Position numbers and translations under genes: made by a program
Shown here: positions 12,507-62,661 of the stretch, piece after piece
How the letters are laid out: each line of letters begins with the position of its first letter
Numbering within the stretch: the stretch's first letter is position 1
The notes under the pieces: generated by a model
What the model saw: the letters and a program-made list of their open reading frames with translations, nothing else
Told to the model about the DNA's origin: nothing
Database searches by the model: none
Source of the DNA: a virus
Taxonomy: Duplodnaviria > Caudoviricetes
Length of the DNA stretch: 64,000 bases
Reading direction: 5' to 3' (one strand)
Virus record (IMG/VR): IMGVR_UViG_3300044645_001661

Positions 12507-12534
12507 TTGCCAGGGGGTGCTGGTGTGGTATGAT
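12507..12534 (+). promoter_or_regulatory. sigma70-type promoter TTGCCA-16-TG-g-TATGAT
   Basis: directly after the terminator, before ATG 12560. Confidence 0.65.
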
Positions 12535-12559
12535 TTGAAGGTCACCACGGGAGAACCCC

Positions 12560-12691: not shown

Positions 12692-12712
12692 TTGTTCAAC
12701 ACCTGAACCACC

Positions 12713-12883
12713 ATGATCGCTGATCTCAACGGTTGCTTCCAACGTAATCCCGACATTCTCAAAGATGTTTGTGAGCACCGTGTTCAAATGGCAAACTTTG
12801 TATTAAGTTTTAACGAAAAGGATCCTGTTGAAAGTGCATGGTATCGTAGCGAAATCCGTCATTACAAACTCTATGATGTCTGA
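12713..12883 (+). CDS. 56-aa protein, not in ORF track
   Basis: read from sequence; TTCAACACCTGAACC leader. Confidence 0.6.
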   Translation: MIADLNGCFQRNPDILKDVCEHRVQMANFVLSFNEKDPVESAWYRSEIRHYKLYDV

Positions 12884-12937
12884 TCAGTAACGCTTATGGG
12901 TCAGGGGGTTGACTCCTGACCCACCCCATGCCAAACT
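12882..12937 (+). promoter_or_regulatory. box B (reverse orientation, GATCAG-N5-CTTATG) + TTGACT-17-TG-c-CAAACT; GGGTCAGG/CCTGACCC stem around the -35
   Basis: 12880-12902 is the reverse complement of 15139-15161 with 2 mismatches. Confidence 0.75.
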
Positions 12938-12961
12938 ACGTTTGTTCACCACTGAACCCCA

Positions 12962-13405
12962 ATGATTACCGAAACCGATCTGCAGTTCTTTGAGACCCAC
13001 TATCAAGCGGTTGAGAATCTTGGTATTCTCAATGTGTTTGAAGATCGTGAGGATCGTATTCGCTTCCGTGCCATCTCTAAGATGATGGAAGATCTTCTGG
13101 CACCTAAAAAAGAAAAGATCTCTCTCACTGAAGAAGAAATTCAACCCATCTTCCGCGAGTATCTTAACGCTTATACTTTTGACGGTAAGGTTAAAGTTTT
13201 TAACCGCAAGATTGCTGCTGAAGGTGTTCAATCCTTCCGCAAGAATCCTATTGCAACTGTCATGGGTATTCATGGGCAACTGGTGTATCATGACAACTGC
13301 AATCACAGCATTGTAAAGTCTTTTGATCGCACTGGTAAAACTCTGAAATCGATGATGTCTCAGTATAATGAACTGATCGGTTTTGAGCGGTTCAAGATCG
13401 ACTGA
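12962..13405 (+). CDS. hypothetical protein
   Basis: ORF track; own promoter and TTCACCACTGAAC leader. Confidence 0.8.
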   Translation: MITETDLQFFETHYQAVENLGILNVFEDREDRIRFRAISKMMEDLLAPKKEKISLTEEEIQPIFREYLNAYTFDGKVKVFNRKIAAEGVQSFRKNPIATVMGIHGQLVYHDNCNHSIVKSFDRTGKTLKSMMSQYNELIGFERFKID

Positions 13406-13459
13406 CACATTAAGAACTGTCACAGGGGGGCATCCGTGCCTCCCATCATGCCCTAAGAT
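13402..13459 (+). promoter_or_regulatory. box A (CTGACACAT-taag-AACTGTCAC) promoter, -10 TAAGAT
   Basis: box ends 31 bp before the -10; GGGGGGCA/TGCCTCCC stem; no -35 consensus. Confidence 0.75.
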
Positions 13460-13482
13460 TACTTCGTTCACCACTGAATCCC

Positions 13483-13620
13483 ATGCCTGAACTCTCCTGG
13501 ATTGATGATGTTCCGATGCCCGCAATGTCGGAAGAAGAGTATAATCAATCTGAAGAGCATTATGAAGATTCGGATTGGTGGAATGATCCCAACTGTGTAA
13601 TGTCCCGTCATCACTATTGA
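13483..13620 (+). CDS. acidic 45-aa protein (WNDPN..SRHHY), not in ORF track
   Basis: read from sequence. Confidence 0.7.
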   Translation: MPELSWIDDVPMPAMSEEEYNQSEEHYEDSDWWNDPNCVMSRHHY

Positions 13621-38700: not shown

Positions 38701-41700
38701 CTTCTTCTGACAGTGGAGATTTAACCACAGTATCTTCATATGATCAAATTAATTATTGCGACTTGCCTCTTATTAATAATAATACTAGACTGACTGATAT
38801 TTTAGATATTCGTCCAAGAGTATTACCTTTTAATCCTTCTTCTAGTACTTCACCATTTGAATTTTTTGGTAGAACTTTTTCGGAAGCAAATAATTCATCT
38901 AAAAATATAATAGCATCAGATGAATCAATTACATTAACATATTCATTCTATCTACCAAGAATAGATAAAATTTATCTAAACAAAAATAGAAAGTTTCAAT
39001 TGATTAATGGAATTCCTTCAGAAAATCCATTACCTCCAATTCCAATTGATGATTCATTAGAAGTTGCTACCATAAATCTACCACCATATATCTGCAATGC
39101 CAACTCTCTAGATATATCATTAAAGCAGCATAAGCGTTATAGAATGCAAGATGTTGCTCAACTTGAAGATAGAATTAGAAATCTAGAATATTATACTGCA
39201 CTATCATTATTAGAAACAAATACTGAAAACTTATTTGTTCCAGATAGAAATGGATTGTCTAGATTTAAGTCTGGAATTTTTGTAGATAATTTCTCTACTA
39301 GAAATTCTCAGGTAAAAATAGGACCAGTAAAAAATAGTATAGACCCAGAAAATTTAGAGTTAAGACCATCACCTTTTACTACAGAAATTGATTTACAATT
39401 AGGGTCTAAGTCGTTAATTGGAATTGGAACTACAGCATCTCCAATTGCAGATACAAAATTTGTAAATGATTTAGTTGGTAATAATGTAAGAAGAACAGGT
39501 CAATTACTCACAATTGATTATGACGAAGTTGTAGAAATAAAACAACCTTTTGCAACAAGAGTTGAAAATGTAGTGCCTTATTTGGTGACTTCTTATAGAG
39601 GAACTATTGAATTATTCCCATCATCAGATATTTGGATAGACCAGGTAAGATTAGAACCACAAAGATTAGAACTGGATCTGTATACAGAATCTAGAGAAGA
39701 ATTAATACATTCTGGATTTGACCCACAAACAGGTTTAACCCCAGTAACTTGGGATGCTTGGGAAGCTACTTGGACTGGCAGTACATCAACTATTCAAAAC
39801 GCCGCAAACTTTGTAGGATCATCATCCCAACAAATTGGAAGAACAATAACTACAACAAATACATTCCAAAATGTTCAAACAACTACTGTAACAAGAACAG
39901 GTACTGAGACTAGATCTGGAACACAATTAAAGTTATCAGAACAAGTTGATGTTGTTAATGAAGGTGATAGAGTTGTTAGCACCTCAGTTATCCCATTCAT
40001 GAGGTCAAGAAACATTGAATTTACTGGTAAATCATTTAAACCTTTTACAAGAATATACACATTTTTTGATGGTGTAGATGTAAATAAGTTTGTTTTACCA
40101 AAACTTATTGAAATTCAAATGGTGACTGGCAAATTTAATGTCGGTGAACTTATAACTGGTAGAATGTCAACTGGATCTGAAACTGAAATCAATAGTTCTA
40201 CTCCATTTATTACATTTAGAGTTGCAAAATCAAATCATAAGTATGGTCCTATTGCAAATCCATTAGATACCTTTACAGTAAGTCCATATAATCAATCATA
40301 TACAATTCCAGAAGAATATTCTAGTTCTTCAATTTTACTTAATGTTGATACTGCTTCATTATCAGATATGACGCAAGGTTTGTATAGAGGATTTATACAA
40401 ACAGGTATGAGATTAAGGGGAGAACAAGGTGAAGCTATTGTAACAAATGTTCGTTTGTTTACTGATAATGTAGGTACAATTATTGGTTCATTCTTTATTC
40501 CAAACCCAAATATCATATCAAATCCATCTTTTGAAACTGGAATTAAGTTATTTAAACTAACAAGTAGTTCCACAAACAGTTCTGTTGGTGGAGTAGTTAG
40601 AACTGATGGAGAAGAGCAGTATTTTGCTCAAGGTACGATTAATAATCAACAAGAAACTATTAGAACAACTAGAAAACCCAGATTTGATGAAGAAACAGTA
40701 AGTGAATCTAGGGGTGCTACAGATGTTCAAACTAGCACTGCTGTATCCACATTTACAACTGTTACTACTATAACACTACCTCCACCTCCTCCACCCGCCC
40801 CACCATGGGGAGGAGACCCACTGGGGCAATCATTCTTTATTACTAATAGTACAGGAGTTTTTGTAACAGCACTAGATGTATTCTTCAATACTAAAGACGA
40901 TACTCTTCCAGTAACAGTTCAACTTAGACCTGTTGTTAATGGAGTTCCTTCTACAGACATATATCCTTTTAGTGAAGTTGTTATTGAAGCTAAAGATGTT
41001 ATTACATCTTCAGATGCATCATTACCAACTAAAGTAATATTCCCATCACCGATTTATTTAAATCCTAATTCAGAAAATGCTATTGTATTATTGTCACAAT
41101 CTTATGAATATACTGCATGGATTTCCAGAATGGGTGAAATTGATATCGGAACATTATCTCAACCAGAATCTAGACAAGTTTTAGTTTCTGCTCAACCAAT
41201 GCTTGGATCTCTATTCAAGTCTCAAAACGGATCTACTTGGACACCAAGCCAATATGAAGACTTGAAATTTAATTTATACTCTGCAAGATTTAAAGGACAA
41301 AATGGATCTATAACATTTTATAATCCAGACTTGTCAGAGGGTAATGCACAAATTGCAAAACTTTTAAAAGATTCTTTAGAATTTAATTCTAGAAAAATAA
41401 TTGTAACTTTAAATGATACTGTAGATGTTTCTGCAGTAGATTTAGGAAATACTGTAATACAATTGAACAACACCGCTACAGCAAATTATGTTGGTGCTGG
41501 TGGTTCTGCTTCTGGAAATCTTAAAATTGTCAATGCTGGTATAGGATATACCCCATCAAATGGATCATCATTTACATTTACAAATGTTCCATTAGTTTCT
41601 TCTACTGGAACTGGAAAAAATGCTACGGCAAATATTACAATTGGAACTGTTAGTGGTCTTAGTGGTGTTGCAATTGCTGCAACTATTTCAAATGGAGGAT

Positions 41701-43301
41701 CTGGATATCAAATTGGTGACATCTTAACTGCAGAGCAAATTGGAACACAATCTCTTGGTAGAAATTTACAATTATCACTGACAAATATTTCAGGAATAAA
41801 TGAATTAATTCTGGATCAAGTCCAAGGAGAGTTTAAAGTTAATGGTGCCATGCCAATTCAGTATGTTGATAGTGTTGCTGGAATTACAACTATATTAACA
41901 ACTTCTAGTTCAAATGCATTAATAACTGATGTTGAATTGTATTCTCTAGAGACTGATGGACTGCATATTAAAGTGAATCATAAAAATCATGGTATGCATT
42001 CTGAAATTAATAGGGTTCAAATTAGTAATATTGATACAGATATAATCCCAACAACATTAACTACAGACTATACAAATTCAGAAACTGGTAGTATTAGTAT
42101 TGCAAGCACAGTATCATTTACTACTTTTGAGAATGTTTCTGTTGCATCAACAAATCCTGGATATGTTTTAATCGATAATGAAGTAATTTCTTACACTGGT
42201 GTTGGTAATGGTCAATTAATAGGAATAACTAGAGGTATTGATCAGACAAGATCTTATAATTATTCATCAGGTTCAATAGTTAAAAAATATGAATTAAATG
42301 GAGTTTCATTAAGAAGAGTCAACAAAACTCATGATTTACAAGATGCTCTTGTTCAAAGACCAGTAGGATTAGATTATTATTATATTAAACTCGACATGTC
42401 TTCAAATGGAACTGATAGAAATAGTGGTTCTGGATTTGAAAAATTATATATTAATGACACCAAATCAACAGGAGGTAACTCTATAAGTGCTTCCCAAAAT
42501 ATACAATATGAAATAGCAAGACCAATAGTTCAAACATTAGTTTTATCTGAAACTAACATTCGTTCTTCCATTAAAACTACAACTGGAACTAGTATTGATG
42601 GTGGTGAAGTATCATTTATTGAATCCGAAATACTTCCATTAAATATATCAGAAAATACTTATTTTGATACTCCACGAATAGTAGCATCGAAGGTCAATGA
42701 ACTGGATAAATTAAATAGTTTACCAGGAAATAAATCATTAAGTGTAACTTTCAACCTATCAACTTTAAATAATACTGTTTCACCAGTAATCGATTTAGAT
42801 AGAGTTGGATTAATTTTAACAACAAATAGAGTAAATAATGCCATTGATGATTATATTAATGATAGTAGAACTTCTTCAATATTAGAAGATCCAACGGCAT
42901 TTATTTACACCAATAAACTAATTGGTCTTGAAAATTCTGCATCCTCTATTAAAATTTTATTATCTGGTTATGTAAATGTCTTTAGTGAAATTAGAGCATT
43001 CTACACTATTTCAAATACATTACAATCCAATCCAATTTACTATCCTTTCCCAGGATATAATAATTTGGACGTAAATGGAAACGTAATTGATATCTTTAAC
43101 AGTGATGGATTACCTAATAAATTAGTACCTAAAACAGATGTACTTGGATTTGGTAGTCGTGAAATAGTCTTTAAAGATTATGAATTCTTTATTGATGATT
43201 TACCAGAATTTAGATATTTTGGTATAAAGTTAATAGGAACGTCTACTAATCAGGCACATCCTCCAAGAATAAAAGACTTACGTGTAATTGCTTTAGCTTA
43301 A
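35793..43301 (+). CDS. large virion structural protein (DUF4815/VrlC-like), 2502 aa
   Basis: NLNVSPYFDDF...LFKPGLPVQARELT; RFKSGIFVDNF; DPLGQSF; PRIKDLRVIALA. Confidence 0.85.
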   Translation: MPKETNLNVSPYFDDFDLEKQYYQVLFKPGLPVQARELTSLQSVLQNQIEQVGNHLFKEGSVVIPGQINYNNTLFAVEVESEYLGIPFASYAQQLLGKIIKGENSNVNAKIILILGPEFSDRGYHTIYINYLSAGTDEKQSFDNGETLLLQENLVLNNLNFQSGQGFAIAAPTDCTSTGSAVFLSEGIYFLRGSFVKVNEQVLVLDPHANNPSYRVGFEILEEVVTSSQDQSLNDNAKGFNNYAAPGADRLKITATLAKKPLDSEKNENFIEILIVRNGFVSHINETPEYNVIVDELARRTFDQSGDFYVKPFSIVSRESLNDGKGNNGIFNSNQLTYGSLTPSSNLGVYKISPGKAFIKGYEVNVKGVTFLDFEKTRTTKTLENQKINFITGPTLTLNRVFGAPKIGFGTDTTISLRDRRIGAAHSISSGKEIGVARVYDYALESGSYSSIDQNLNEWDIALYDIQTYTEITLNEPITLSTPTFIEGKSSGATAYLRYNTTTGIVTAYNGQGNFIFGEKLVFNGLEGNRVATAITAYSIDDVKSLYSLVGSGVTFNSDVKPQLKASYGQVIITPKSGTAPGICTVTSNDLVFLNVVKPGDLVSFTNPGINNSQLKTFARIESVIDDYNIIISGITTVSNICDGGLPTSQITPVDFSILKSKFQSSSDNTLYTPLPKKWISNVSLTNSNLTIRKEFNVTITANTTNTIQADEDEFFLPFDEERYVLVNSSGYIEPLTPDKFRYTNGNREIRIFGLNGVGSARLIATLEKINIKNKVKNVNRVNSIIIDKSKFAQSGIGSTTLNDGLSYGSYGYGLRVQDKELCLLVPDVTKVYGIFESSDTTNPKLPRISLFNLNGPTGRVDDLIVGEEFIGKESGAIGIFVSKFDSLNLEFIYLNELRFKLNESVEFKETKISGVINAFFDGDSNITNRYLLDSGQKETICDYSKLIRLADNKEPKKKIRIIFESSQYSSSDSGDLTTVSSYDQINYCDLPLINNNTRLTDILDIRPRVLPFNPSSSTSPFEFFGRTFSEANNSSKNIIASDESITLTYSFYLPRIDKIYLNKNRKFQLINGIPSENPLPPIPIDDSLEVATINLPPYICNANSLDISLKQHKRYRMQDVAQLEDRIRNLEYYTALSLLETNTENLFVPDRNGLSRFKSGIFVDNFSTRNSQVKIGPVKNSIDPENLELRPSPFTTEIDLQLGSKSLIGIGTTASPIADTKFVNDLVGNNVRRTGQLLTIDYDEVVEIKQPFATRVENVVPYLVTSYRGTIELFPSSDIWIDQVRLEPQRLELDLYTESREELIHSGFDPQTGLTPVTWDAWEATWTGSTSTIQNAANFVGSSSQQIGRTITTTNTFQNVQTTTVTRTGTETRSGTQLKLSEQVDVVNEGDRVVSTSVIPFMRSRNIEFTGKSFKPFTRIYTFFDGVDVNKFVLPKLIEIQMVTGKFNVGELITGRMSTGSETEINSSTPFITFRVAKSNHKYGPIANPLDTFTVSPYNQSYTIPEEYSSSSILLNVDTASLSDMTQGLYRGFIQTGMRLRGEQGEAIVTNVRLFTDNVGTIIGSFFIPNPNIISNPSFETGIKLFKLTSSSTNSSVGGVVRTDGEEQYFAQGTINNQQETIRTTRKPRFDEETVSESRGATDVQTSTAVSTFTTVTTITLPPPPPPAPPWGGDPLGQSFFITNSTGVFVTALDVFFNTKDDTLPVTVQLRPVVNGVPSTDIYPFSEVVIEAKDVITSSDASLPTKVIFPSPIYLNPNSENAIVLLSQSYEYTAWISRMGEIDIGTLSQPESRQVLVSAQPMLGSLFKSQNGSTWTPSQYEDLKFNLYSARFKGQNGSITFYNPDLSEGNAQIAKLLKDSLEFNSRKIIVTLNDTVDVSAVDLGNTVIQLNNTATANYVGAGGSASGNLKIVNAGIGYTPSNGSSFTFTNVPLVSSTGTGKNATANITIGTVSGLSGVAIAATISNGGSGYQIGDILTAEQIGTQSLGRNLQLSLTNISGINELILDQVQGEFKVNGAMPIQYVDSVAGITTILTTSSSNALITDVELYSLETDGLHIKVNHKNHGMHSEINRVQISNIDTDIIPTTLTTDYTNSETGSISIASTVSFTTFENVSVASTNPGYVLIDNEVISYTGVGNGQLIGITRGIDQTRSYNYSSGSIVKKYELNGVSLRRVNKTHDLQDALVQRPVGLDYYYIKLDMSSNGTDRNSGSGFEKLYINDTKSTGGNSISASQNIQYEIARPIVQTLVLSETNIRSSIKTTTGTSIDGGEVSFIESEILPLNISENTYFDTPRIVASKVNELDKLNSLPGNKSLSVTFNLSTLNNTVSPVIDLDRVGLILTTNRVNNAIDDYINDSRTSSILEDPTAFIYTNKLIGLENSASSIKILLSGYVNVFSEIRAFYTISNTLQSNPIYYPFPGYNNLDVNGNVIDIFNSDGLPNKLVPKTDVLGFGSREIVFKDYEFFIDDLPEFRYFGIKLIGTSTNQAHPPRIKDLRVIALA

Positions 43302-50910: not shown

Positions 50911-53679
50911 ATGGCGACTCCTCAATTATCTCCTGGTATATTAGTCAGGGAAGTTGATTTAACTGTCGGGAGAGCTGAAAATGTATTAGATAATATTGGT
51001 GCTTTAGCTGGTCCTTTCGAAATTGGCCCAGTTAATGAACCAATCAATATCACTACAGAGCAAGAGTTACTTAATACTTTTGGTAAACCATCTAGTTCTG
51101 ATAACCAATATGAGTATTGGTTGTCCGCATCATCATTTTTATCCTATGGTGGTGTTTTAAAAGTAGTAAGAACCGATGGATCTACTTTAAGTAACGCTAA
51201 TGCTGGAGTTGCGGCATCAGTTACAACTACAAAAATTAAGAATTTCGACGACTATAATTCAAACTTTTTAGATGCTGCAAATAATTTTTATTTTGCAGCA
51301 AAAAATCCAGGTTCATGGGCAAATGGATTAAAAGTTTGTGTAGTAGACGATAAAGCAGACCAAATTGTTGGTATTGCAACTACAGTATTAGCAAATGTTA
51401 ATATTCAAGTTGGTTATGGTGTTACAGTAGATCTTAGTGGAGAAGTTCTTCCAGGAATTGGAACAACTTCAGTATTCCAAGGATATCTAAAAGGTATTAT
51501 TACTGACACCGTTGATAATATTAGGGGTGGATCAGTAATTTACGTTAAAATTATTTCTAGAGTCTCTACAGGCGGAACTGAATATCCAATTAGTTATGCA
51601 GAAAATAATGTATTGAATTCTATCGTAGAAGGAAGTAAATTGTCCATTGTGGACAACAACGGTGCGGTTGTATCAGATAAAGACTCTATAGGTGAGGTTG
51701 GTATAACCACGTTTACATCAATTAATGGACAACAGGATGAAGTTTATACTGGAGTAGGTGCTACCTCTTCAGGATCTGGAACTCAAGCAACATTTACCAT
51801 TACTAGAAACAGTAGTGATGGTGGTGTTCTTTCAGCTGCAGTTGTAAATCCTGGTGTTGGATATTCAACTGGAGATTCAGTAACCATTGCTGGAAGTGAT
51901 GTTGGTGGATTTAATCTAACTAATGGTGTTATAAGAACTGTCGGATTAACATCATCAACTACAGTTGTAGCAGCTTCAAACGCAACTTACACTGGAGTTG
52001 CTGGAGTAAGTACAGTAGGAACAGGCGTATCCTTCACAATTTATAGAAATGGTAGTGGTGGAATTGGGACAGTATTTGTTGCCAATCAAGGATCAGGATA
52101 TCAAGTTGGAACTGTAATTACTATTCCTGGAACTTCTGTCGGTGGAGTTGCACCAACTGATAACCTAACACTATCAGTTACTGCCCTTAGAGATGACAAA
52201 ATTGTTTTACAAGTATCTGAGGTAGCTTCTAGTATAGTTGCTGGTCTTACCGTTGATTGGTATAGCCAGCAAGTATTAAAATTAGATAATGGCATTGTAT
52301 TTTGGAATACTATTGCTCCTAAACCAGGAACATCACAATATGCATTGGAGAGAAATAGTAGATCAGATGAGATGCACGTTGTCGTTGTAGACGATTCTGG
52401 ATCTATAAGTGGTGTTAAAGGTAATATCTTAGAAAAGCATCTATTCTTATCAAAAGCAGTTGATGCAATTTCTTCTTCAAATTCTCCAACTAAAATTTGG
52501 TATAAGAATTATCTTGCAAACTTCTCAAGATACATCTATGCTGGAACTAACCCATCAAATGCTTATGATGGATATTGGTTAACAGATCCACAAGCTACAA
52601 TATTTACTTATGGTGCTAATTACACCTCAGACAATTTTGAAACTGATTTTGATCTCTATACCCTAGGTGAAACTGTTTGGGATAGACCAGCACAAGATGC
52701 AATCTTTAGTACAATTGGTCAAGTTACTTATACATTAGCAAATGGTGGTGACTACAGTGCTGGTGGTGGATTAAGATCAAGTCTCCCATATATTATGGAA
52801 TCTTACAATCTATTTGAAAATAGAGATGATATTGCAGTAGATTACTTAATCATGGGTCCAGGTGGAGAATCAATTTCTGAATCACAATCAAAAGCAAATA
52901 GATTAATATCTATTGCAGATTCAAGAAAAGATTGTGTTGCGGTAATATCACCACACAGAGCTGGTGTAGTTGGATTGTTGAATCCAAACGAACAAACAAA
53001 TAACATTATAGAATTCTTTGGTCCATTATCTTCCTCATCATATGCTATTTTTGATAGTGGATATAAGTACATGTATGATAGATTCAATAATGTGTTTAGA
53101 TATATACCATGCAATGGTGATGTAGCTGGTCTGATGTGCAGAACAAATATAGTTGCATATCCTTGGTATTCTCCTGCTGGACAGCAAAGAGGTGTTATTA
53201 AGAATGCAATTAAACTTTCATTCAATCCAAATAAATCACAAAGAGACGCCCTTTATTCTGCAAGAATTAATCCAGTTATTAATCAACCTGGAGTTGGCAT
53301 TATCTTGTTCGGTGATAAAACAGCATTATCTTATGCATCTGCCTTTGATAGAATTAATGTTCGCAGACTATTTTTAACAGTTGAACAGGCATTGGAAAAA
53401 GCTGCTCAGGCACAACTCTTCGAGTTTAACGATCAGATTACAAGAGCAAACTTTGTCAACATCGTTGAACCATACTTACGTGATATTCAGGCAAAGAGAG
53501 GTGTTTATGACTTCCTAGTAATTTGTGATGAAACTAACAACACACCTGATATTATTGATAATAATGAATTCAGAGCTGACATCTTCCTGAAACCAGCTAA
53601 ATCTATCAACTACATTACACTAACCTTTGTTGCTACTAGAACAGGGGTAAGTTTTGAAGAAGTGGCTGGTAGAGTTTGA
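50911..53679 (+). CDS. g18: tail sheath protein gp18 (922 aa, with insertions)
   Basis: LSPGILVREVDLT; AFDRINVRRLFL; IFLKPAKSINYI. Confidence 0.97.
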   Translation: MATPQLSPGILVREVDLTVGRAENVLDNIGALAGPFEIGPVNEPINITTEQELLNTFGKPSSSDNQYEYWLSASSFLSYGGVLKVVRTDGSTLSNANAGVAASVTTTKIKNFDDYNSNFLDAANNFYFAAKNPGSWANGLKVCVVDDKADQIVGIATTVLANVNIQVGYGVTVDLSGEVLPGIGTTSVFQGYLKGIITDTVDNIRGGSVIYVKIISRVSTGGTEYPISYAENNVLNSIVEGSKLSIVDNNGAVVSDKDSIGEVGITTFTSINGQQDEVYTGVGATSSGSGTQATFTITRNSSDGGVLSAAVVNPGVGYSTGDSVTIAGSDVGGFNLTNGVIRTVGLTSSTTVVAASNATYTGVAGVSTVGTGVSFTIYRNGSGGIGTVFVANQGSGYQVGTVITIPGTSVGGVAPTDNLTLSVTALRDDKIVLQVSEVASSIVAGLTVDWYSQQVLKLDNGIVFWNTIAPKPGTSQYALERNSRSDEMHVVVVDDSGSISGVKGNILEKHLFLSKAVDAISSSNSPTKIWYKNYLANFSRYIYAGTNPSNAYDGYWLTDPQATIFTYGANYTSDNFETDFDLYTLGETVWDRPAQDAIFSTIGQVTYTLANGGDYSAGGGLRSSLPYIMESYNLFENRDDIAVDYLIMGPGGESISESQSKANRLISIADSRKDCVAVISPHRAGVVGLLNPNEQTNNIIEFFGPLSSSSYAIFDSGYKYMYDRFNNVFRYIPCNGDVAGLMCRTNIVAYPWYSPAGQQRGVIKNAIKLSFNPNKSQRDALYSARINPVINQPGVGIILFGDKTALSYASAFDRINVRRLFLTVEQALEKAAQAQLFEFNDQITRANFVNIVEPYLRDIQAKRGVYDFLVICDETNNTPDIIDNNEFRADIFLKPAKSINYITLTFVATRTGVSFEEVAGRV

Positions 53680-53714: not shown

Positions 53715-54317
53715 ATGTCAACTAGAAACATCAGAACAATCACTGATTTTAAATCAAAACTACAAGGTGGAGCAGCCAGACCAAATCTATTTGAAGTATC
53801 TATCCCAACTTTTCCAGCCTCAGTAACTGGATGGGATGATGAAACATTCCAATTTATGTGCAAATCTGCTGCTCTACCAGCTTCTAACGTAGCACCTATC
53901 GATGTTCCATTTAGAGGTCGTATTTTAAAAGTTGCTGGAGACAGAACATTTGATACTTGGACCGTGACTATCATTAATGATGAAGACTTTAAACTAAGAA
54001 CTGCATTTGAGCAGTGGATGAATCAAATTAGTAAATTAGATAATGCTACTGGTGCTACGAGCCCAACATCATATATGGTAAATGCATTTGTCTATCAATT
54101 AGGTAGAGGTGCATCAAGATTTTCGGATGGAAATACCGACAATTTGACTAATACTGCATTAAGAACATATAAGTTCTATGATATCTTCCCAACTAATGTA
54201 TCTCAAATTGATCTTTCTTATGATACTTCAGATACAATTGAAGAATACACCGTAGAATTCCAAGTTCAATGGTGGCAAGCGGAAGGTACTGATCAAACCA
54301 ATACTGAAATTAGATAA
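53715..54317 (+). CDS. g19: tail tube protein gp19
   Basis: GGAARPNLFEV; FRGRILKVAGDRTFDTW; IEEYTVEFQVQWW. Confidence 0.97.
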   Translation: MSTRNIRTITDFKSKLQGGAARPNLFEVSIPTFPASVTGWDDETFQFMCKSAALPASNVAPIDVPFRGRILKVAGDRTFDTWTVTIINDEDFKLRTAFEQWMNQISKLDNATGATSPTSYMVNAFVYQLGRGASRFSDGNTDNLTNTALRTYKFYDIFPTNVSQIDLSYDTSDTIEEYTVEFQVQWWQAEGTDQTNTEIR

Positions 54318-54351: not shown

Positions 54352-56013
54352 ATGGCAAAATTATTTGGATTTTCTATAGAGAATAAGGAATCTATCTCAC
54401 CTTCTGTAGTATCCCCCGTCCCTCAAAACAATGAGGACGGGGTTGATCATTATTTAACAAGTGGTTTTTTTGGATCTTATGTAGATATAGAAGGTGTTTA
54501 TAGAACAGAATATGATTTAATTAAAAGATATAGAGAAATGTCACTTCACCCAGAAGTTGATAGTGCCATTGAAGATATTGTTAATGAAGCTATTGTTAGT
54601 GATAGTAACGATACTCCAGTACAAATTGAATTATCTAATTTAAATGCCAGTGATGGATTAAAAAAGAAAATAAGAGAAGAATTTAAAACAATTTTAGATT
54701 TATTAGATTTTGATAAAAAATCTCATGAAATTTATAGGAATTGGTACGTTGATGGAAGACTTTATTATCATAAAGTAATTGATCTAAAAAATCCTCACAA
54801 AGGTATCCAAGAATTAAGATATATTGACGCATTAAAAATGCGTTACATTAGACAATCTGTTAGTAAAAAGAAAAATAATGGTGGAGTTAGGATAAAAAAT
54901 TCTAACGATGAAAATCCAATGGATTATGATTTTCCAGAAATTGAAGAATATTTTGTGTATAATCCCACTGCACAATCTCCAATTGGGTCTATGAATGGAA
55001 GAAATTCCAGTCAAGCAAATTCTGGTATAAAAATTGCAAGGGATGCAATAACTTATTGTACTTCTGGATTAGTAGACAGAAATAAAGGAACTTGTTTATC
55101 TTACTTACATAAAGCAATCAAATCTCTCAATCAACTTCGCATGATTGAAGATAGTCTTGTTATCTACAGGTTATCTCGTGCCCCAGAACGTAGAATTTTT
55201 TATATCGACGTAGGTAATTTACCAAAAATTAAAGCAGAGCAATATTTACGTGACGTTATGATGCGTTATCGTAATAAACTTGTTTATGATGCTAGCACTG
55301 GTGAGATTAGAGATGATAAGAAGTTCATGAGTATGCTTGAGGACTTCTGGTTACCTCGCCGTGAAGGTGGTAGAGGAACTGAAATTACAACTCTTCCAGG
55401 TGGTCAAAACCTTGGTGAAATTACAGATATTAAATATTTCCAAAGTAAATTATATAAATCTTTGAATGTTCCCCCATCAAGAATAGAAGGTGAAGGTGGA
55501 TTTAATCTTGGAAGATCATCTGAAATTTTACGAGATGAACTTAAATTTACCAAATTTGTTGGTAGATTAAGAAGACGTTTTTCTAACATGTTTAATGACA
55601 TGTTAAAAACTCAATTAATACTAAAAAATATCGTAACTCCAGAAGATTGGGAGCAAATGAGTGAGCATATTCAATATGATTTCCTTTATGACAATCACTT
55701 CTCAGAATTAAAAGAAGCAGAATTAATGACTGAAAGGTTAAATATTGCGGCTACTGCTGAACCTTATATTGGTAAATATTATTCTCAAGATTATGTAAGA
55801 CGTAAAATTTTACGCCAAACTGATGAAGAAATTATTGAACAAGATCAACTTATTAAAAAAGAAATTAAATCTGGTATTATTCCAGATCCAAATGCACCAA
55901 TAGATCCAAATACTGGTATGCCTATGGATGCAAGTCAAAATAATATCGATGGTGCATCTGGAAAAGTTCCAATAGAACCAGGAATAAACGCATCAGATAC
56001 AGAAGTTAAGTAA
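54352..56013 (+). CDS. g20: portal protein gp20
   Basis: RAPERRIFYIDVGNLPK; EDFWLPRREGGRGTEITTLPGG. Confidence 0.98.
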   Translation: MAKLFGFSIENKESISPSVVSPVPQNNEDGVDHYLTSGFFGSYVDIEGVYRTEYDLIKRYREMSLHPEVDSAIEDIVNEAIVSDSNDTPVQIELSNLNASDGLKKKIREEFKTILDLLDFDKKSHEIYRNWYVDGRLYYHKVIDLKNPHKGIQELRYIDALKMRYIRQSVSKKKNNGGVRIKNSNDENPMDYDFPEIEEYFVYNPTAQSPIGSMNGRNSSQANSGIKIARDAITYCTSGLVDRNKGTCLSYLHKAIKSLNQLRMIEDSLVIYRLSRAPERRIFYIDVGNLPKIKAEQYLRDVMMRYRNKLVYDASTGEIRDDKKFMSMLEDFWLPRREGGRGTEITTLPGGQNLGEITDIKYFQSKLYKSLNVPPSRIEGEGGFNLGRSSEILRDELKFTKFVGRLRRRFSNMFNDMLKTQLILKNIVTPEDWEQMSEHIQYDFLYDNHFSELKEAELMTERLNIAATAEPYIGKYYSQDYVRRKILRQTDEEIIEQDQLIKKEIKSGIIPDPNAPIDPNTGMPMDASQNNIDGASGKVPIEPGINASDTEVK

Positions 56014-57799
56014 TTTTAATAAATTTATTTTTTAAAAGACCCTTTCTTCTTAAGATAAAAAGATTATTTTTATCATATCCTATAAAGTCATTATCGATTT
56101 TATAGGATATTTTATTTTTCTCCCAAGTTTCTATATTATATTTTGAGTTTAAAGTTAATGGATATTTTTGATTTTCATTAAAAATAAATTTTTTCTGAAT
56201 ATCAATAATTTCTGAGTCAATTTGTACAATATTTGAGCAATATAACTCAATAAATTCAAATAGTTTTGATTTATTTTTAAATAAGAATTCAAAACTACTA
56301 GCATGTAAAGAATGTCCAGTTTTGGCACCCTGTGTTATCTTCCCAGTCTTGATATAAGTAGAGACAATATTATATATTTCTTGATAATGAACTCCAATGA
56401 ATCCATCATCATTTTTTATACAGTCAAATAAATTATCATAAAATTTTCTATAACTTATATTTAAAATATTAAAGCAATACTTCGATAGCACTTGAGTATA
56501 TCCTGCTATATGCAATTGAACAATCAACCATCCGTACATATAACATTCAATTAATTCATCTGTGGTTAAAGTATCGGTTTTATTAATTAATTCTATACTT
56601 TCTTTTACTTCTGAGTAATCTTTTTCATTAGTGAATGAAACGTAATCCTCTGCTTTGATAGTTTCAATACCATATATTTTTCTAGATAATTCACTGTTCA
56701 ATTCACTGTTACCAAAAACTTGACAAAACCAAACATCAATAGATTCATGTTGCCCAAATTCTAATATTTTAGAGAATCCTTCCTTCCAAGAATCTATAGT
56801 TTCGTTTGGTAATCCTAAAATTAACTCGGTATAAGTTTTTACATCATGCTCTTTACTTTTTTCAATATGAGATGTAATGTTATTAATACTCATATTTTTT
56901 CTTTTAATTGCTTTAAGTGTTGGTTCATTCATACTTTGAACACTTATAGTTACACCTCTACTAATATCTCCAAGTATTTTTGCTATTTCAAAAACTACTT
57001 CTGTAGAATTTTTAGAATATTGCAAATTAACAGATTCTAATTTGCTATTATCAGCAACTTCTCTTATTAATTTTGCTATTTCTAAATCTCTTTCTTTATA
57101 CATTCCAAAATTTGCATCTGCACAAAATATAAATGCAACATTATTATTTTTAATCCATTCAAGATCATTTTTTACACGATCTAGATTAAACATTTTAACT
57201 TTACTATAGGTTAATCCACCCCAATCACAAAAAGTACATGAATGGGGGCACCCTCGATTAGTTTCAATAGTAGAAGCCCAAAGAGTATTTGGATTGTCTT
57301 TTACAATTTGATCAAATACTTTAGATTCATATGGACTTGGAAAGTCTAATTGCTCTATTCTACTTTTTTGATATATTTTTTCTATCGTTTTATTTTGAAT
57401 AATACTAGTTAATAAATCTAAGTAACTTTCTTCACCTTCACCAATTATTACACAATCTATAAATTCATTATCAAGAATTTTCAAAGTTGCTTGTGGTCCA
57501 CCAAATTGAATAATACAGTCTGGAAATTTTTCTTTTATTAGTTTTGATAAAAATAGACAATATTGCTCATTCCAAACGTAACAACTAAAACTGCACACTG
57601 TTGGATTGTCCAATCTTTCCAGTATTTTATCTGGATGCTCTCTTTTAAAGATAATATCTTTTAATACAAAATTGTTTTTTACTTCATCAAATTGATTACA
57701 ATAACTCCATAAACAACCAACACTGTAGGGAAGCCAATATGTGTCTTCATTTCTAATTTCTACAGAATATTGCGGTTGAAATAAATATATATTTTTCAT
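56006..57799 (-). CDS. B12-binding-domain radical SAM protein (class B methyltransferase-like), paralog 2
   Basis: FSCYVWN...FGGPQ...GEGE; ETNRGCPHSCTFCDWG (CxxxCxxC); DANFG; TELILGLP. Confidence 0.9.
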   Translation of the reverse strand: MKNIYLFQPQYSVEIRNEDTYWLPYSVGCLWSYCNQFDEVKNNFVLKDIIFKREHPDKILERLDNPTVCSFSCYVWNEQYCLFLSKLIKEKFPDCIIQFGGPQATLKILDNEFIDCVIIGEGEESYLDLLTSIIQNKTIEKIYQKSRIEQLDFPSPYESKVFDQIVKDNPNTLWASTIETNRGCPHSCTFCDWGGLTYSKVKMFNLDRVKNDLEWIKNNNVAFIFCADANFGMYKERDLEIAKLIREVADNSKLESVNLQYSKNSTEVVFEIAKILGDISRGVTISVQSMNEPTLKAIKRKNMSINNITSHIEKSKEHDVKTYTELILGLPNETIDSWKEGFSKILEFGQHESIDVWFCQVFGNSELNSELSRKIYGIETIKAEDYVSFTNEKDYSEVKESIELINKTDTLTTDELIECYMYGWLIVQLHIAGYTQVLSKYCFNILNISYRKFYDNLFDCIKNDDGFIGVHYQEIYNIVSTYIKTGKITQGAKTGHSLHASSFEFLFKNKSKLFEFIELYCSNIVQIDSEIIDIQKKFIFNENQKYPLTLNSKYNIETWEKNKISYKIDNDFIGYDKNNLFILRRKGLLKNKFIKIT

Positions 57800-59604
57800 T
57801 CATCAATTTTAGATACAGTATTTTTTAGTAATCCCTTTCTTCTTAAAACCCAAAAATCATTTCGTATTGACTCATCTCTTTTATTTGAAACCATTAAACT
57901 TGTTGGTTTATCTTCCCATGTTGTTGTATCAACAGAAGAAGGAATAGTAATAGGATAATCTACCTCAGAGTCATAAACAAAGTTTTTTTGAAGATCCCAA
58001 AATTCATTAGTTATACCACCAAATTTTACCAGAGATTTATCAATTAAGGCAAATACTTCATTCCTATTATTCATAAAAAATGAAAAATCATTAGGAGAAT
58101 TAAATTCTAATGAATGTCCACTTTTATTATCTGGTAAAATTCCCTCTGTTAAGTAATTTTTTACATCGAACTTTAATTTTTGAAAATATTTACCAATTAT
58201 TCCGTTGTCAGTTTGAACCTTTTCAAATATTTCATCATAAAACATCCTATAAGTTATATTTTTATTGTAAAAAAGATATTTTGCTATTAGTTGAGCATAT
58301 CCATTTATATGGAATTGTATTACTGTCCAAGCATACAAATAACTTTCAATTAATTCCGAAGTTGCCATTGAATTAGTTTTATTAACTATCTCAACAATTT
58401 CTTTGAATCCATGATATTCCTTAGGATTAGTGAATGAAATATAGTCATACGCCTTTACTGTTTCAATTCCGTGCATCTTTCTAGAGAATTCACTTCCCAA
58501 TTCACTATTACCAAATAATTGGCAGAACCAAACATCAATCGATTCGTGTTGACCACACTCCAAAACTTTAGATAATCCGTCTTTCCAAGTTTCTAAAGTT
58601 TCCTCGGGTAATGGCAAAATCAGTTCAGTATATGTTTTAACTCCATATTCTTGACTCATTCTCATATGATTAGTCAAATCATTTATATGAAGATTCTTTC
58701 TCTTAATAGCCTTCAAAGTTGGTTGATTCATACTTTGAACGCTAATTGTTATTCCCCTAAGACAATGTTCTTCAAGTATTTTTGCAATTTTAAATACTGC
58801 TTCTGTTGAATTCTTAGCAAATTGTAAAACAACGTCACCAACATTGGTTTCTTTTAATTTGTCTCTGATTATCTCTGCTATAAGTATATCTCGCTCCTTA
58901 TACATTCCAAAATTAGCATCAGCAACAAATAAGTATCCAATATTATTATTTTTTATCCAAGTAATATCATCTTCAACTCTTTTTATATCAAAGTGATCTA
59001 CTTTACTCATAGTAGTTCCACCCCAATCACAAAAAGTACATCTATGAGGGCAACCTCGATTTGTTTCTATAGTTGCAGCCCAAATTACATTTGGATTTTC
59101 CTCGATTATTTTACTAAAAATATTAGATTGATATGGACTAGGATAATCCAGTGTAGATAATCTAGTTCTTTCGTAATATTTTTTTATTTCTTTGTTTTCT
59201 GTAATAGATTTAAGTATATCTAAAAAGTTTTCTTCCCCCTCAGAAATTATTACAGTATCAATAAAATCATTCTCCTCTTGCATTTTTTTAGATGCTTGAG
59301 GTCCACCAAATTCAATAATGCAATTTGGAAATTTTTCTTTTACTAGTTTAGCTATTCCTAGACAATACTGTTCATTCCAAATATAACAACTAAATCCACA
59401 TAAAACAGGATTATCCAATCTTTCTAATATTTTATCTGGATGTTCTCTTTTAAAAATTATATCCTTTAAAATAAAATTATTTTTTACTTCATCAAATTGA
59501 TTACAATAACTCCAAATACATCCAACACTATATGGTATCCAATAATTTTCTTGTTTTCTAACTTCTACAGAATATTGTGGTTGAAATAAATATATGTTTT
59601 TCAT
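57796..59604 (-). CDS. B12-binding-domain radical SAM protein, paralog 1 (start moved to ATG 59604)
   Basis: ETNRGCPHRCTFCDWG; MKNIYLFQPQYSVE start identical to paralog 2; the upstream 11 codons contain the late promoter. Confidence 0.9.
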   Translation of the reverse strand: MKNIYLFQPQYSVEVRKQENYWIPYSVGCIWSYCNQFDEVKNNFILKDIIFKREHPDKILERLDNPVLCGFSCYIWNEQYCLGIAKLVKEKFPNCIIEFGGPQASKKMQEENDFIDTVIISEGEENFLDILKSITENKEIKKYYERTRLSTLDYPSPYQSNIFSKIIEENPNVIWAATIETNRGCPHRCTFCDWGGTTMSKVDHFDIKRVEDDITWIKNNNIGYLFVADANFGMYKERDILIAEIIRDKLKETNVGDVVLQFAKNSTEAVFKIAKILEEHCLRGITISVQSMNQPTLKAIKRKNLHINDLTNHMRMSQEYGVKTYTELILPLPEETLETWKDGLSKVLECGQHESIDVWFCQLFGNSELGSEFSRKMHGIETVKAYDYISFTNPKEYHGFKEIVEIVNKTNSMATSELIESYLYAWTVIQFHINGYAQLIAKYLFYNKNITYRMFYDEIFEKVQTDNGIIGKYFQKLKFDVKNYLTEGILPDNKSGHSLEFNSPNDFSFFMNNRNEVFALIDKSLVKFGGITNEFWDLQKNFVYDSEVDYPITIPSSVDTTTWEDKPTSLMVSNKRDESIRNDFWVLRRKGLLKNTVSKIDE

Positions 59605-59627
59605 TTCATTGAACTTTATGTATGTTG

Positions 59628-59642
59628 TATTTATCATAAATA
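59628..59642. promoter_or_regulatory. overlapping divergent late promoters TATTTAT-C-ATAAATA
   Basis: ATAAATA on both strands; genes start at 59604 (-) and 59666 (+). Confidence 0.7.
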
Positions 59643-59665
59643 TAACAGAATTAAATGATTAAAAA

Positions 59666-59824
59666 ATGGACGAACTTTTAGATATGATTATCTCTGATGA
59701 ATCGCCATCACAAGTCAGCGATAAAATTAAAGAACTTCTTTTTGCCAAATCTGCAGAAAGAATTGAGGCATTAAGACCTACAGCAGGAAATTCATTATTT
59801 GGGAATCAAGAAGAGGTAGGATGA
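59666..59824 (+). CDS. 52-aa conserved head-region protein (MDELLDMI...LFAKSAERIE), not in ORF track
   Basis: read from sequence; position equivalent to T4 g67/g68. Confidence 0.75.
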   Translation: MDELLDMIISDESPSQVSDKIKELLFAKSAERIEALRPTAGNSLFGNQEEVG

Positions 59825-59825
59825 T

Positions 59826-60146
59826 ATGAAATCATTCAAGCAATTTATATCTGAATCAGTTAATATTGCTGGTGATTTTACTGGAAATCTTTATATTAAT
59901 TCCGAAACAGAACAACCTCAGCAAGTAGGAGAAAACTATGTTGCTGATGTTATGTGGCAAGGAAACTTGTATAGATTGGAATTAGTAACCAAATCTGGAT
60001 TGCCCTCAAAACAGGATTTAGGTGAGCAACTTCAAAGACAATATCCTGGAGCAATTGTTCATCAGATTTATCCAGCAGAAGAAAAGAACTTTAACATTAA
60101 AAACGTACAAAGATATCACCCCTCAAAATTAGAATGGATTGATTGA
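59826..60146 (+). CDS. putative internal head protein with capsid-targeting-like N-terminus
   Basis: MKSFKQFISE resembles the T4 IP targeting peptide. Confidence 0.7.
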   Translation: MKSFKQFISESVNIAGDFTGNLYINSETEQPQQVGENYVADVMWQGNLYRLELVTKSGLPSKQDLGEQLQRQYPGAIVHQIYPAEEKNFNIKNVQRYHPSKLEWID

Positions 60147-61699
60147 TAATGGCTCAGTGGAATATACAAAATCAAGATTATCTAAATCAAGAGAGATCTT
60201 TATTTGAAGTTAATAATATTGCAACTAAAGATGGTCAACCAGTTAGTGTTGACAATCCATTTCCAGTATCTCTTGGAAGTTCTAGCATTACAATTAATGG
60301 TGATATTAGTATTCCTGGAATAGTAACTGTTACAAGTACACCAGAAAATCCAATTCATTCTCATCTAGTAGAAGTAGGAACCAGTAGCACATTAACAGTT
60401 CCATATCTCCCAGTCGGTATTTCAACATTACTGAATACTGTAAGTATTGGAACTACTGGGCAAGTATCAATCAACCTCAATAATTCACCAGTCAGCACCA
60501 CAAATCCATTTCCAGTAACAGCAACTTTTGGAAATCAAACAGATAGTAATAGATTAAAAGTTTCTCCTTTCCAAACAGTTTTCTTTAATACTTTCCAGTA
60601 TGGTAAAGAGACTGATGTTTGGGATGAAAGAATAGTTGGAGTTGGAACCGCAACCTGGAACCAATATTCCAGTAATGTGGTTATGCAAGTAGGTGTTACT
60701 ACTGGAAGTAAAGTTATCAGACAAACCAAGAATGTAATGAGATACATCCCTGGCAGAGGATCGACACTTGCATTTGCAGTTCGTCTTGATAATCCACAGG
60801 TAGGTATTCGTAGAAGATTTGGATTGTTTGATGATAATAATGGTGCTTATTTTGAGGATAATGGAGGAACATATTCGTATGTAATTCGCACCACTACAAC
60901 AGGTATCACCACAGAAATAAGAATTGGTAGAGAAGGTTGGAATGGTGATAAGTTTGATGGTAATGGACCATCTGGTGTAATTGCAGATCCAATCAAACAA
61001 CAGATGATTTCTATTGCTTATGAGTGGTATGGTGCAGGAACTGTAAATTTCGATTGGTTAATGGGTGGTAAGACTGTTAGGAGTCATTCCTTTATTAATT
61101 CAAACACCAATAATTTTGTTTGGTGTTCTACACCATTCCTCCCAATTCGTCTTGAGATTGAGAATATTACTGGTGTTGCAGGAACTCATTACCTTTATCA
61201 GGGTTCTAATTCACTTATTCAAGAGGGAGAGCCAGAAAAACTTGGAGCACTTGTAAGTCAGTCTAATACCATCACGGGAACTACGATGACACTTGCAGAT
61301 ACATTTTATCCCATCATAAGTTTGCGACTTAAACCAACCGCATTACAAGCAGTATTACTTTTGAGATCTTTACAAGCAGTAACGAATGATAATACTAATG
61401 TGTATTGGAAACTTTTAGAGAATGCAACATTAACTGGTGCAAACTGGATAAATCACGCAAATCCAGATTCATTTGCTCAGTATGATATTTCTGCAACTTC
61501 ATATTCTAACGGTAGAGATATTCTTTCTGGATTTACTATTTCTGGTGGTTCTTCTTTAACAGATATTGATAGACTTGCAGACTTACAACTTGGAAGGTCT
61601 GGTATTGGGACAATCAGTGACATTTACACTCTTGTTTGTGCAAGTCCTAATACTAACAAAAAAGCACTTGCAGTATTGAACTGGATTGAACAGAGATAA
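60143..61699 (+). CDS. hypothetical, probably structural beta-rich protein
   Basis: ORF track; Ser/Thr/Gly-rich; lies in the late module. Confidence 0.8.
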   Translation: MIMAQWNIQNQDYLNQERSLFEVNNIATKDGQPVSVDNPFPVSLGSSSITINGDISIPGIVTVTSTPENPIHSHLVEVGTSSTLTVPYLPVGISTLLNTVSIGTTGQVSINLNNSPVSTTNPFPVTATFGNQTDSNRLKVSPFQTVFFNTFQYGKETDVWDERIVGVGTATWNQYSSNVVMQVGVTTGSKVIRQTKNVMRYIPGRGSTLAFAVRLDNPQVGIRRRFGLFDDNNGAYFEDNGGTYSYVIRTTTTGITTEIRIGREGWNGDKFDGNGPSGVIADPIKQQMISIAYEWYGAGTVNFDWLMGGKTVRSHSFINSNTNNFVWCSTPFLPIRLEIENITGVAGTHYLYQGSNSLIQEGEPEKLGALVSQSNTITGTTMTLADTFYPIISLRLKPTALQAVLLLRSLQAVTNDNTNVYWKLLENATLTGANWINHANPDSFAQYDISATSYSNGRDILSGFTISGGSSLTDIDRLADLQLGRSGIGTISDIYTLVCASPNTNKKALAVLNWIEQR

Positions 61700-62010: not shown

Positions 62011-62661
62011 ATGAAACTTATCAGAGAAGAAATCGAAAAGGTAGAACTTATCACCGAAGATGTTGGTGGTAAAAAACAAATGTATATCCAAGGTGTATTC
62101 CTCCAAAGCGAAACAGTTAATCGTAATGGTAGAATGTATCCTTTTTCGATTATGGAAAGAGAAGTAAATCGTTATAATGAAAATTATGTTAAAAAAGGTA
62201 GGGCATTAGGAGAACTTGGTCATCCAGATGGTCCTACAGTAAATCTCGATAGAGTTTCTCATAAAATTACTGAATTAAAGCAAAGTGGTAATAATTTTGT
62301 AGGTAAGGCACAAATCTTATCAACTCCAATGGGAAAAATTGCAGCATCTCTTCTTAAGGATGGGGTAACTCTTGGTGTTTCATCCCGTGGTATTGGTTCT
62401 CTAAGAGAAAACAATAAAGGATATAAAGAAGTTGGTGAAGACTTCATGCTTGCAACTGCAGCTGATATTGTTGCTGATCCTTCTGCACCTGATGCTTTTG
62501 TTCAAGGCATTATGGAAGGCAAAGAATGGATTTGGGATGGTGGAATTCTCCGCGAAAAACTCGCAGAAAACACCAGAAGAAAAATTAATAATTTGGTTGA
62601 ACAAAGAAGACTAGAAGAGAATAAAATTGAGTTATTTAATGAATTTTTAAATTCATTATAA
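62011..62661 (+). CDS. g21: prohead protease gp21
   Basis: NRNGRMYP; ALGELGHP...VSH; GVSSRGIGSL; DIVADPSAPDA. Confidence 0.97.
   Translation: MKLIREEIEKVELITEDVGGKKQMYIQGVFLQSETVNRNGRMYPFSIMEREVNRYNENYVKKGRALGELGHPDGPTVNLDRVSHKITELKQSGNNFVGKAQILSTPMGKIAASLLKDGVTLGVSSRGIGSLRENNKGYKEVGEDFMLATAADIVADPSAPDAFVQGIMEGKEWIWDGGILREKLAENTRRKINNLVEQRRLEENKIELFNEFLNSL

Follow-up and report, generated by a model that had tools for sequence, protein, structure and literature searches.

Introduction

Radical S-adenosylmethionine (SAM) methylases that depend on cobalamin carry out some of the hardest methylations in biology, and the few that have been studied come from antibiotic, pigment and methanogen pathways. 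Two genes that look like members of this class stand side by side on the minus strand, antisense to the head genes, in the structural block of a T4-like cyanomyovirus (IMG/VR record IMGVR_UViG_3300044645_001661; Duplodnaviria, Caudoviricetes). The whole 64,000-nt stretch is referred to here as the window, the portal-proximal gene as rSAM-A and the distal gene as rSAM-B. The locus raises the question of what the two proteins are, how they came to lie among head genes, when they would be made and what they would modify. Our overall explanation, to which we assign a probability of roughly 45%, is that the genes form a coupled accessory operon for two methylases of the TokK/ThnK/CysS type that would be made late and would act on a sugar. 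We found no paper on cobalamin-dependent radical SAM genes in cyanophages. The features at the centre of this account are as follows.

56006..57799, minus strand: rSAM-A, very probably a TokK/CysS-like cobalamin-dependent radical SAM methylase, 597 aa; portal-proximal copy, A clade
57796..59604, minus strand: rSAM-B, its paralog, 602 aa when translated from the ATG at 59604 (613 aa if the open frame is followed to 59637); B/C clade
57796..57799, minus strand: ATGA overlap of 4 nt in which the end of rSAM-B meets the start of rSAM-A, consistent with translational coupling; relatives too overlap by 4 nt

Results

Both proteins resemble TokK, ThnK and CysS in sequence and fold

An earlier, sequence-only reading of this DNA had described two minus-strand paralogs with a CxxxCxxC motif and a B12-type N-terminal domain. 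The open reading frames, the Pfam matches and the motif CPHxCTFC largely bear out that description; the B12-binding match stays under the Pfam cutoff. Pfam Radical_SAM (PF04055) matches both proteins with 52–56 bits (E 1e-14; cutoff 29.5). The top NCBIfam model is in both cases the KedN5 family (NF033712), which comprises methylcobalamin-dependent C-methyltransferases; the scores of 165 and 159 bits do not reach the curated cutoff of 700 and do not make the proteins members of that family. In a phmmer search of the PDB, TokK (7kdx) was matched over residues 21–483 with an E value of 7.7e-68, and CysS (9n1b) with an E value of 3.5e-37. No family in PHROGs matches either protein.

The fold places the proteins in the same group. 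An AlphaFold model built with 30 family members as input has a mean predicted local distance difference test (pLDDT) score of 90.4, and Foldseek aligns residues 2–597 of this model to TokK with a TM-score of 0.88 and to ThnK with a TM-score of 0.85, CysS reaching a TM-score of 0.76; matches to OxsB, MgmA, TsrM and MiaB are far weaker. The full-length alignment takes in the cobalamin domain of TokK, and the three-domain fold, including a large C-terminal domain, matches both TokK (TM-score 0.88) and ThnK (TM-score 0.85). These two enzymes, which methylate the C6 side chain of carbapenems (PDB 7kdx, 7kdy), likewise have a Rossmann cobalamin domain followed by a radical SAM barrel and then a C-terminal domain, although sequence identity to the phage proteins is only 22–24%. 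CysS, a methylase that builds the alkoxy groups of cystobactamid (PDB 9n1b-d), and the KedN5 family fall together with the phage proteins in one clade of iterative C-methylases that depend on cobalamin.

The sequence-only reading had also assigned the pair to class B (cobalamin-type) radical SAM enzymes and had named HpnP and BchE as relatives for comparison. Closeness to TokK, ThnK and CysS in both sequence and fold supports the class. In a fold search of Swiss-Prot, ThnK and TokK were recovered with an E value of 1e-46 and TM-scores of 0.85–0.88, whereas BchE, HpnP, HpnR and BchQ reached only ~0.5; HpnP and BchE are thus distant, and the fold scores rule out a function like theirs. We conclude that both genes very probably code for radical SAM C-methyltransferases that use cobalamin and belong to the TokK/ThnK/CysS type.

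Residues diagnostic of the clade are kept and the substrate-binding Arg of TokK is not

None of 30 family representatives and no phage copy departs from C184, C188 and C191, and the representatives also keep the GGP and GEGE motifs without exception. W76 and W193, present without exception across the family and the phage copies, align with TokK Trp76, the residue under the cobalt, and with the active-site residue Trp215. This pair of tryptophans is conserved only in TokK, ThnK and CysS (bioRxiv 10.1101/2021.07.10.451909; PMC12846815), and the lower-axial Trp has been confirmed for CysS (PMC12846815). The equivalents of CysS Trp75, Trp188 and Trp206 are also invariant. Common to the phage proteins, TokK and ThnK are therefore the CxxxCxxC motif, a Trp below the cobalt and, within a CDWG motif, the Trp of the active site.

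One alignment column behaves differently. It holds both TokK Arg280, which binds the C3 carboxylate of the substrate, and the gate residue Trp271 of CysS, and neither is conserved in the phage copies. The column is Asn (Asn258) in 31/31 distinct A copies and Asn in all 4 single-copy viral homologs; it is Val in rSAM-B of the window and Val, Thr or Asp across B copies. Given that the Trp and Cys residues are kept and this column is not, the chemistry is probably shared with TokK and CysS, but the substrate is probably not.

The two copies also differ from each other. In TokK and CysS the C-terminal domain contributes to the substrate pocket (bioRxiv 10.1101/2021.07.10.451909; PMC12846815), and this domain is the most divergent part of rSAM-A relative to rSAM-B, with 38% identity as compared with 58% over the full length. 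Since the gate residue differs and each copy is conserved, A and B probably carry out different steps, or act at different positions, of one pathway. We infer that A may retain the ancestral specificity and that B may act at another step or position. Fused double enzymes of ~1,280 aa occur among more distant relatives, which suggests, as a lead only, that paired action is common among such enzymes.

The duplication is old and its 5′ end has probably been converted

The sequence-only reading had taken the two genes for the product of recent duplication or gene conversion. In a tree of 88 sequences, the portal-proximal copies form one clade (support 99) and the distal copies form its sister clade (support 93), the two clades covering copies of ~35 phages. 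Given this sister relationship of A and B copies, the duplication appears to predate the phage lineages; a recent duplication is rejected, and on this phylogeny the A/B duplication is ancient. The window's A copy is basal in the A clade, and its B copy lies in the second clade, grouped with the third copies found in two loci. These third copies (525 aa; L021:3851-5428 and L039:3739-5316) lie upstream of a gene resembling glycosyltransferase family 25 (GT25), described below. For both copies, the ratio of non-synonymous to synonymous substitution rates (dN/dS) is 0.04–0.13 in most ortholog pairs, indicating strong purifying selection.

Gene conversion has a better case, although a local one. 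An exact 34-mer reported as common to both genes was found at 57676 and 59481, where none is expected by chance. Nucleotide identity between A and B is ~0.8–0.9 over the first ~100 codons, 0.6–0.8 in the middle and ~0.5 at the 3′ end, so that the 3′ halves diverge as described, whereas "nearly identical" overstates the likeness of the 5′ ends. Codon-level identity alone is not decisive for conversion in such AT-rich, codon-biased DNA. At the protein level, the window's A and B copies are 82% identical over their first 105 residues, compared with 0.52–0.74 for the same comparison in other phages, and this value exceeds the identity of either copy to its own orthologs. In a tree of this segment only, the window's A and B copies pair together, with a Shimodaira–Hasegawa-like approximate likelihood ratio (SH-aLRT) support of 91. 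Segment identity and segment tree together argue, with moderate confidence, for local gene conversion over ~300 nt in the lineage of the window.

A separate observation concerns exchange between phages. In loci L009 and L028 the distal B copies are nearly identical (dS 0.12), whereas the proximal A copies are highly diverged (dS 1.85), a contrast that points to recombination within the cassette between phage lineages.

The pair is an accessory cassette at the junction of g20 and a small head gene

The genes that border the pair are both on the plus strand.

54352..56013, plus strand: portal gene g20 (phrog_213, E 1e-228), left border of the insertion
59666..59824, plus strand: small head-module gene, 52 aa, bounding the insertion on the right; also found in 36 related loci

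The stop of rSAM-A overlaps the end of g20 by 8 bp (56006-56013), as direct reading of the sequence confirms for a convergent overlap noted earlier. G+C content is 0.22–0.31 in the pair and 0.33–0.37 in the flanks. Of the 80 IMG/VR contigs whose portal gene comes closest to that of the window, 76 span the junction, and a radical SAM gene is present in 6/76. In the nearest cassette-free relative (L147; 86% portal identity), g20 is followed by the 52-aa gene, a 106-aa gene and a gene for a 518-aa structural protein in the order seen in the window, and the g20 stop is immediately followed by the late promoter of the 52-aa gene. Another relative (L146; 87% portal identity) has a single A-like copy of 556 aa. 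The 52-aa gene is a homolog of the gene directly after g20 in the cultured Synechococcus phages S-SM2 and S-SCSM1, which are the closest to the window by portal (78–79% identity). Since cassette-free relatives join g20 directly to the 52-aa gene, this junction is the insertion point, which gives the antisense insertion proposed by the sequence-only reading a precise site in the head module. We conclude that the cassette is an accessory element, which close relatives have gained and lost.

The cassette is widespread in uncultured phages. A scan of IMG/VR with the rSAM-A protein returned 54 loci, ~50 of which are cyanomyovirus contigs with the layout of the window: g17, g18, g19, g20, two antisense radical SAM genes, the ~52-aa gene, g21, g22 and g23. 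Identity to the window is 99% in five contigs. In the metagenome collection, the index entries for one protein of this family span 88 blocks, and the contigs concerned, the longest of 128 kb, are clearly T4-like phage. Among cultured phages, megablast of positions 55500-60200 against 50,697 phage records gave no match, and tblastn of rSAM-A in phage records gave only two gut phage contigs, with 22–25% identity. The radical SAM gene of S-SCSM2R, a phage not shown to be among the 50,697 records, is annotated as a maturase (PMC12801897), and on that annotation we set it aside as another kind of gene.

Cellular homologs were sought in a set that represents each GTDB species by one genome. The strongest match lies in a gammaproteobacterial metagenome-assembled genome, with 39% identity, and no cyanobacterium appears among the best 80 loci; the close homolog in the cyanobacterial host lineage that marks a host-derived auxiliary metabolic gene is thus absent from these 80.

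A predicted late-type promoter precedes the operon

The start of rSAM-B bears on the promoter. The ATG at 59637, which opens the longest frame, is the centre of a 15-bp palindrome, whereas the in-frame ATG at 59604 opens a protein that begins MKNIYLF..., as do rSAM-A and every ortholog. Agreement of paralog and ortholog starts, together with a promoter spacing of 23 nt, makes 59604 rather than 59637 the likely true start of rSAM-B. The elements discussed in this section are listed here.

59628..59642, no strand assigned: palindrome TATTTATCATAAATA, 15 bp, containing two putative divergent late-promoter cores
59635 to 59628, minus strand: core GATAAATA, predicted for the rSAM operon, 23 nt before the ATG at 59604
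59635-59642, plus strand: core CATAAATA, a late-promoter match for the 52-aa small head gene
56075..56110, plus strand: terminator-like hairpin and U tract, 62 nt past the g20 stop and within the 3′ coding end of rSAM-A; −17.4 kcal/mol, z −8.4
55865..55891, minus strand: weak terminator-like hairpin and U tract, past the rSAM-A stop and within the 3′ end of g20; −10.1 kcal/mol, z −2.2

The motif NATAAATA is the late-promoter motif published for cyanomyoviruses (PMC2984593), and its presence ~20–40 nt upstream of a start codon is the usual mark of a cyanophage late gene; the rSAM operon has it at such a distance. In the window, NATAAATA lies 21–41 nt before the starts of the gene at 47438, g18, g20, an 89-aa gene, g22 and the 52-aa gene. 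The motif and this spacing at g18, g20 and g22 are those of the T4-type late promoters of cyanomyoviruses (PMC2984593). On the minus strand it occurs only 4 times in the 64 kb, one copy being GATAAATA before rSAM-B. The palindrome TATTTATCATAAATA occurs once, at 59628-59642, where none is expected by chance. Upstream of the antisense operon the motif is kept in ~20/25 distinct related loci, at most ~25 nt before the first gene and mostly 13–24 nt before it. This conservation, and a spacing like that at g18, g20 and g22, uphold the claim that the palindrome supplies a late-promoter core on both strands. Unlike usual late promoters, the two cores are fused in one palindrome, predicted to be bidirectional, with one core for an antisense accessory operon. 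Sigma-70-type promoters are not enriched in the region (40 found, 33.6 expected). Judged from these sequence features, the rSAM operon is probably expressed late.

The strong hairpin at 56075-56110 has a perfect stem of 15 bp. Placed as it is, it would block g20 transcripts that run antisense through the rSAM pair, and its bases appear to do double duty, coding for rSAM-A and likely terminating transcription of the convergent g20. The hairpin at 55865..55891 is weak evidence of a counterpart for rSAM-A.

Viral gene neighbours point tentatively to a sugar

The sequence-only reading had left a list of possible targets, namely virion proteins or glycans, DNA and lipids. Of these, a glycan best fits the gene neighbours of viral relatives. 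In 30 loci a gene of ~305 aa heads the antisense operon; it shares 4 nt with rSAM-B, and its EDDYD motif is invariant. In the Atlas, this gene clusters with viral groups that are partly Glyco_transf_25 (score 0.98; 11–29% of members), and the best matches of its model are the GT25 enzymes COLGALT1, mimivirus R655 and a bacterial beta-1,4-galactosyltransferase (E ~1e-6). In non-cyanophage viral contigs (L043, L045, L046, L049 and L144), an overlapping gene for an NAD-dependent sugar epimerase/dehydratase directly precedes a single homolog. A DegT fragment and a glycosyltransferase of family 1 (GT1) also lie near single-copy viral homologs, with QueC or GTP cyclohydrolase I further off. In positions 1-13501 of a 59.9-kb metagenome contig from ENA, either viral or cellular (L142), six B12-type radical SAM genes, including a fused double enzyme of 1,283 aa, are interleaved with two genes for glycosyltransferases of family 2 (GT2) and one for a DegT aminotransferase. 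A further gene, of 220 aa, follows g20 on the structural strand in 29 loci (for example L008:6603-7265) and has an invariant HxD...H pattern; from an Atlas score of 0.89, its sole support, it may be a 2-oxoglutarate/Fe(II) oxygenase, and it has no Pfam match and PDB profile searches gave nothing usable.

Several observations count against a pair of cobalamin enzymes directed at a sugar. The Pfam B12-binding match is weak in both proteins (22–24 bits, under the cutoff of 32.1), so that cobalamin binding is deduced from fold and motifs. The model of the ~305-aa gene has a low mean pLDDT of 57.5, higher in the first 110 residues, and the gene has no match in Pfam and no sequence match in the PDB. 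Both it and the 220-aa gene are absent from the whole 64-kb window, and no glycosyltransferase accompanies the window's cassette anywhere in those 64 kb. The neighbours of 27 cellular homologs (25–33% identity) are heterogeneous, comprising short-chain dehydrogenases, radical SAM proteins, PhyH dioxygenases and methyltransferases, and show no glycan enrichment, with 2 GT2 and 2 dehydratase genes among 101; the sugar inference rests solely on viral contexts. Finally, the solved relatives use pantetheine-linked small molecules, not sugars (PMC12846815). The closest cellular homolog (L057) is uninformative, having a transposase and ilv genes as neighbours. On balance we favour a sugar or glycan as the substrate, tentatively and at somewhat less than even odds.

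Among the alternatives, the one that survives best, although we consider it unlikely, is that a virion (head) protein or a peptide is C-methylated by the pair on amino-acid side chains, in the way that Mmp10 and MgmA act on methyl-coenzyme M reductase (MCR) or that ribosomally synthesized and post-translationally modified peptides (RiPPs) are methylated. Location between portal and prohead protease, within the head-assembly module and facing a late promoter, would suit such a role; the weaker NCBIfam matches include a RiPP C-methyltransferase (E 2.5e-11) and an MCR glutamine methylase (E 9e-09), and MgmA (9ccb) is among the fold matches. However, the small-molecule enzymes TokK and CysS are far closer (E 1e-45 versus 6e-13), and the partner genes of relatives are sugar enzymes. 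Moreover, since the cassette is present in only 6 of the 76 informative contigs with the closest portals, it is not needed for head assembly. A related candidate, the 52-aa gene as a RiPP precursor, is ruled out by its presence in cassette-free phages.

Somewhat less likely again is that the pair tailors a pantetheine-linked or carrier-bound small molecule, or a lipid, of the infected cell in the manner of TokK, ThnK and CysS, as part of metabolic takeover rather than of work on the virion. All solved close relatives take pantetheinylated substrates, and the mixed neighbourhoods of the cellular homologs, with their dehydrogenases, dioxygenases and methyltransferases, are natural-product-like. 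Yet no gene for a carrier protein, CoA ligase, or polyketide or non-ribosomal peptide synthesis was seen beside any viral copy, and the Arg280 of TokK has given way to Asn in A and to Val, Thr or Asp in B.

Hypermodification of phage DNA bases, or of a DNA-attached sugar, ahead of packaging is the least probable: late timing beside the portal would fit, and QueC or GTP cyclohydrolase I, both of the 7-deazaguanine pathway, lie a few genes from single-copy viral homologs, but the whole protein aligns to the three domains of TokK and no DNA-binding or base-flipping domain was found in it, and the cyanophage cassette has no deazaguanine genes, which elsewhere are separated from the homolog by other genes.

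Other features of the structural block

The window covers the structural block of the phage, with genes for baseplate wedge, neck, sheath stabiliser, terminase, sheath, tube, portal (g20), prohead protease (g21) and scaffold (g22); all of the named structural genes are on the plus strand. The following belong to this block.

50911-53679, plus strand: sheath
53715-54317, plus strand: tube
62011-62661, plus strand: prohead protease g21

Three further observations concern the rest of the window. Between g20 and g21, at 59826-61699, are the 106-aa gene (phrog_1742) and the 518-aa virion structural gene (phrog_1645), which also occur there in ~25 related contigs; the homolog of the 106-aa gene in S-SCSM1 sits upstream of the terminase gene, from which we infer that this block has moved. 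Two giant plus-strand open reading frames, of 3,876 and 2,502 aa, lie at 22544-34174 and 35793-43301 in the baseplate/tail region. The open reading frame at 6151-6879 matches the 2-oxoglutarate/Fe(II) oxygenase family phrog_81 (E 1e-13), a typical cyanophage accessory gene.

Discussion

The mechanism that we propose begins with rSAM-B and rSAM-A as an accessory T4-like cyanophage operon, coupled at translation, which would be transcribed antisense to the head genes from the late-type promoter, so that the enzymes would act during virion building. By homology, one SAM would methylate cob(I)alamin to give methylcobalamin, and a second would be cleaved at the 4Fe-4S cluster to give a 5′-deoxyadenosyl radical; this radical would abstract hydrogen from an unactivated sp3 carbon, and the resulting substrate radical would pick up the methyl group from methylcobalamin. 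The solved relatives methylate one carbon repeatedly, from methyl to ethyl to isopropyl. A and B would carry out different steps, or methylate different positions, in one pathway, with cobalamin supplied by the host as pseudocobalamin. The least certain step is the substrate, which may be a sugar, as a nucleotide-sugar or as a glycan on an acceptor that belongs to the phage or to the cell surface.

Methylation of a sugar at an unactivated carbon by radical chemistry has parallels. GenK and GenD1 are class B radical SAM sugar C-methylases of actinomycete aminoglycoside antibiotic pathways, and the phage enzymes would be like them in their chemistry. The enzyme chemistry is thus already known; what is new is the viral subfamily, the ancient conserved pair, and the site in the structural module with its late-promoter wiring. 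Unlike TokK and ThnK, the phage enzymes are not surrounded by a carbapenem pathway, and they are viral, lie in a structural module and form a conserved pair.

Taken to its most specific form, our explanation would have lake, possibly marine, cyanophages building an alkyl-branched sugar (C-methyl, ethyl or isopropyl) on a virion or infected-cell glycan by means of two late B12-dependent radical enzymes. We hold this version to be rather improbable, but its consequences would be considerable. All cyanomyoviruses carry cobS, whose role is unexplained (PMC2984593), and more than 95% of cyanobacteria are reported to make only pseudocobalamin. A phage enzyme that requires cobalamin makes the link between cobS and pseudocobalamin testable; if the alkyl-branched sugar is made, it would be the first concrete client for cyanomyovirus cobS, and part of phage fitness would hang on host pseudocobalamin.

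The finding also matters for the family as a whole. T4-like cyanophages have, within their structural block, a distinct and strongly conserved radical SAM subfamily, seen in ~50 uncultured contigs and with no close host homolog among the best 80 loci. Gain and loss of the cassette among close relatives provides natural comparisons with and without it. If the enzymes are active, the virus would run an oxygen-sensitive, B12-requiring reaction inside an oxygen-evolving cell, and infection would be tied to the host's supply of pseudocobalamin. The likely product would then be a new modified sugar or other methylated target, relevant to host recognition or to evasion of defence.

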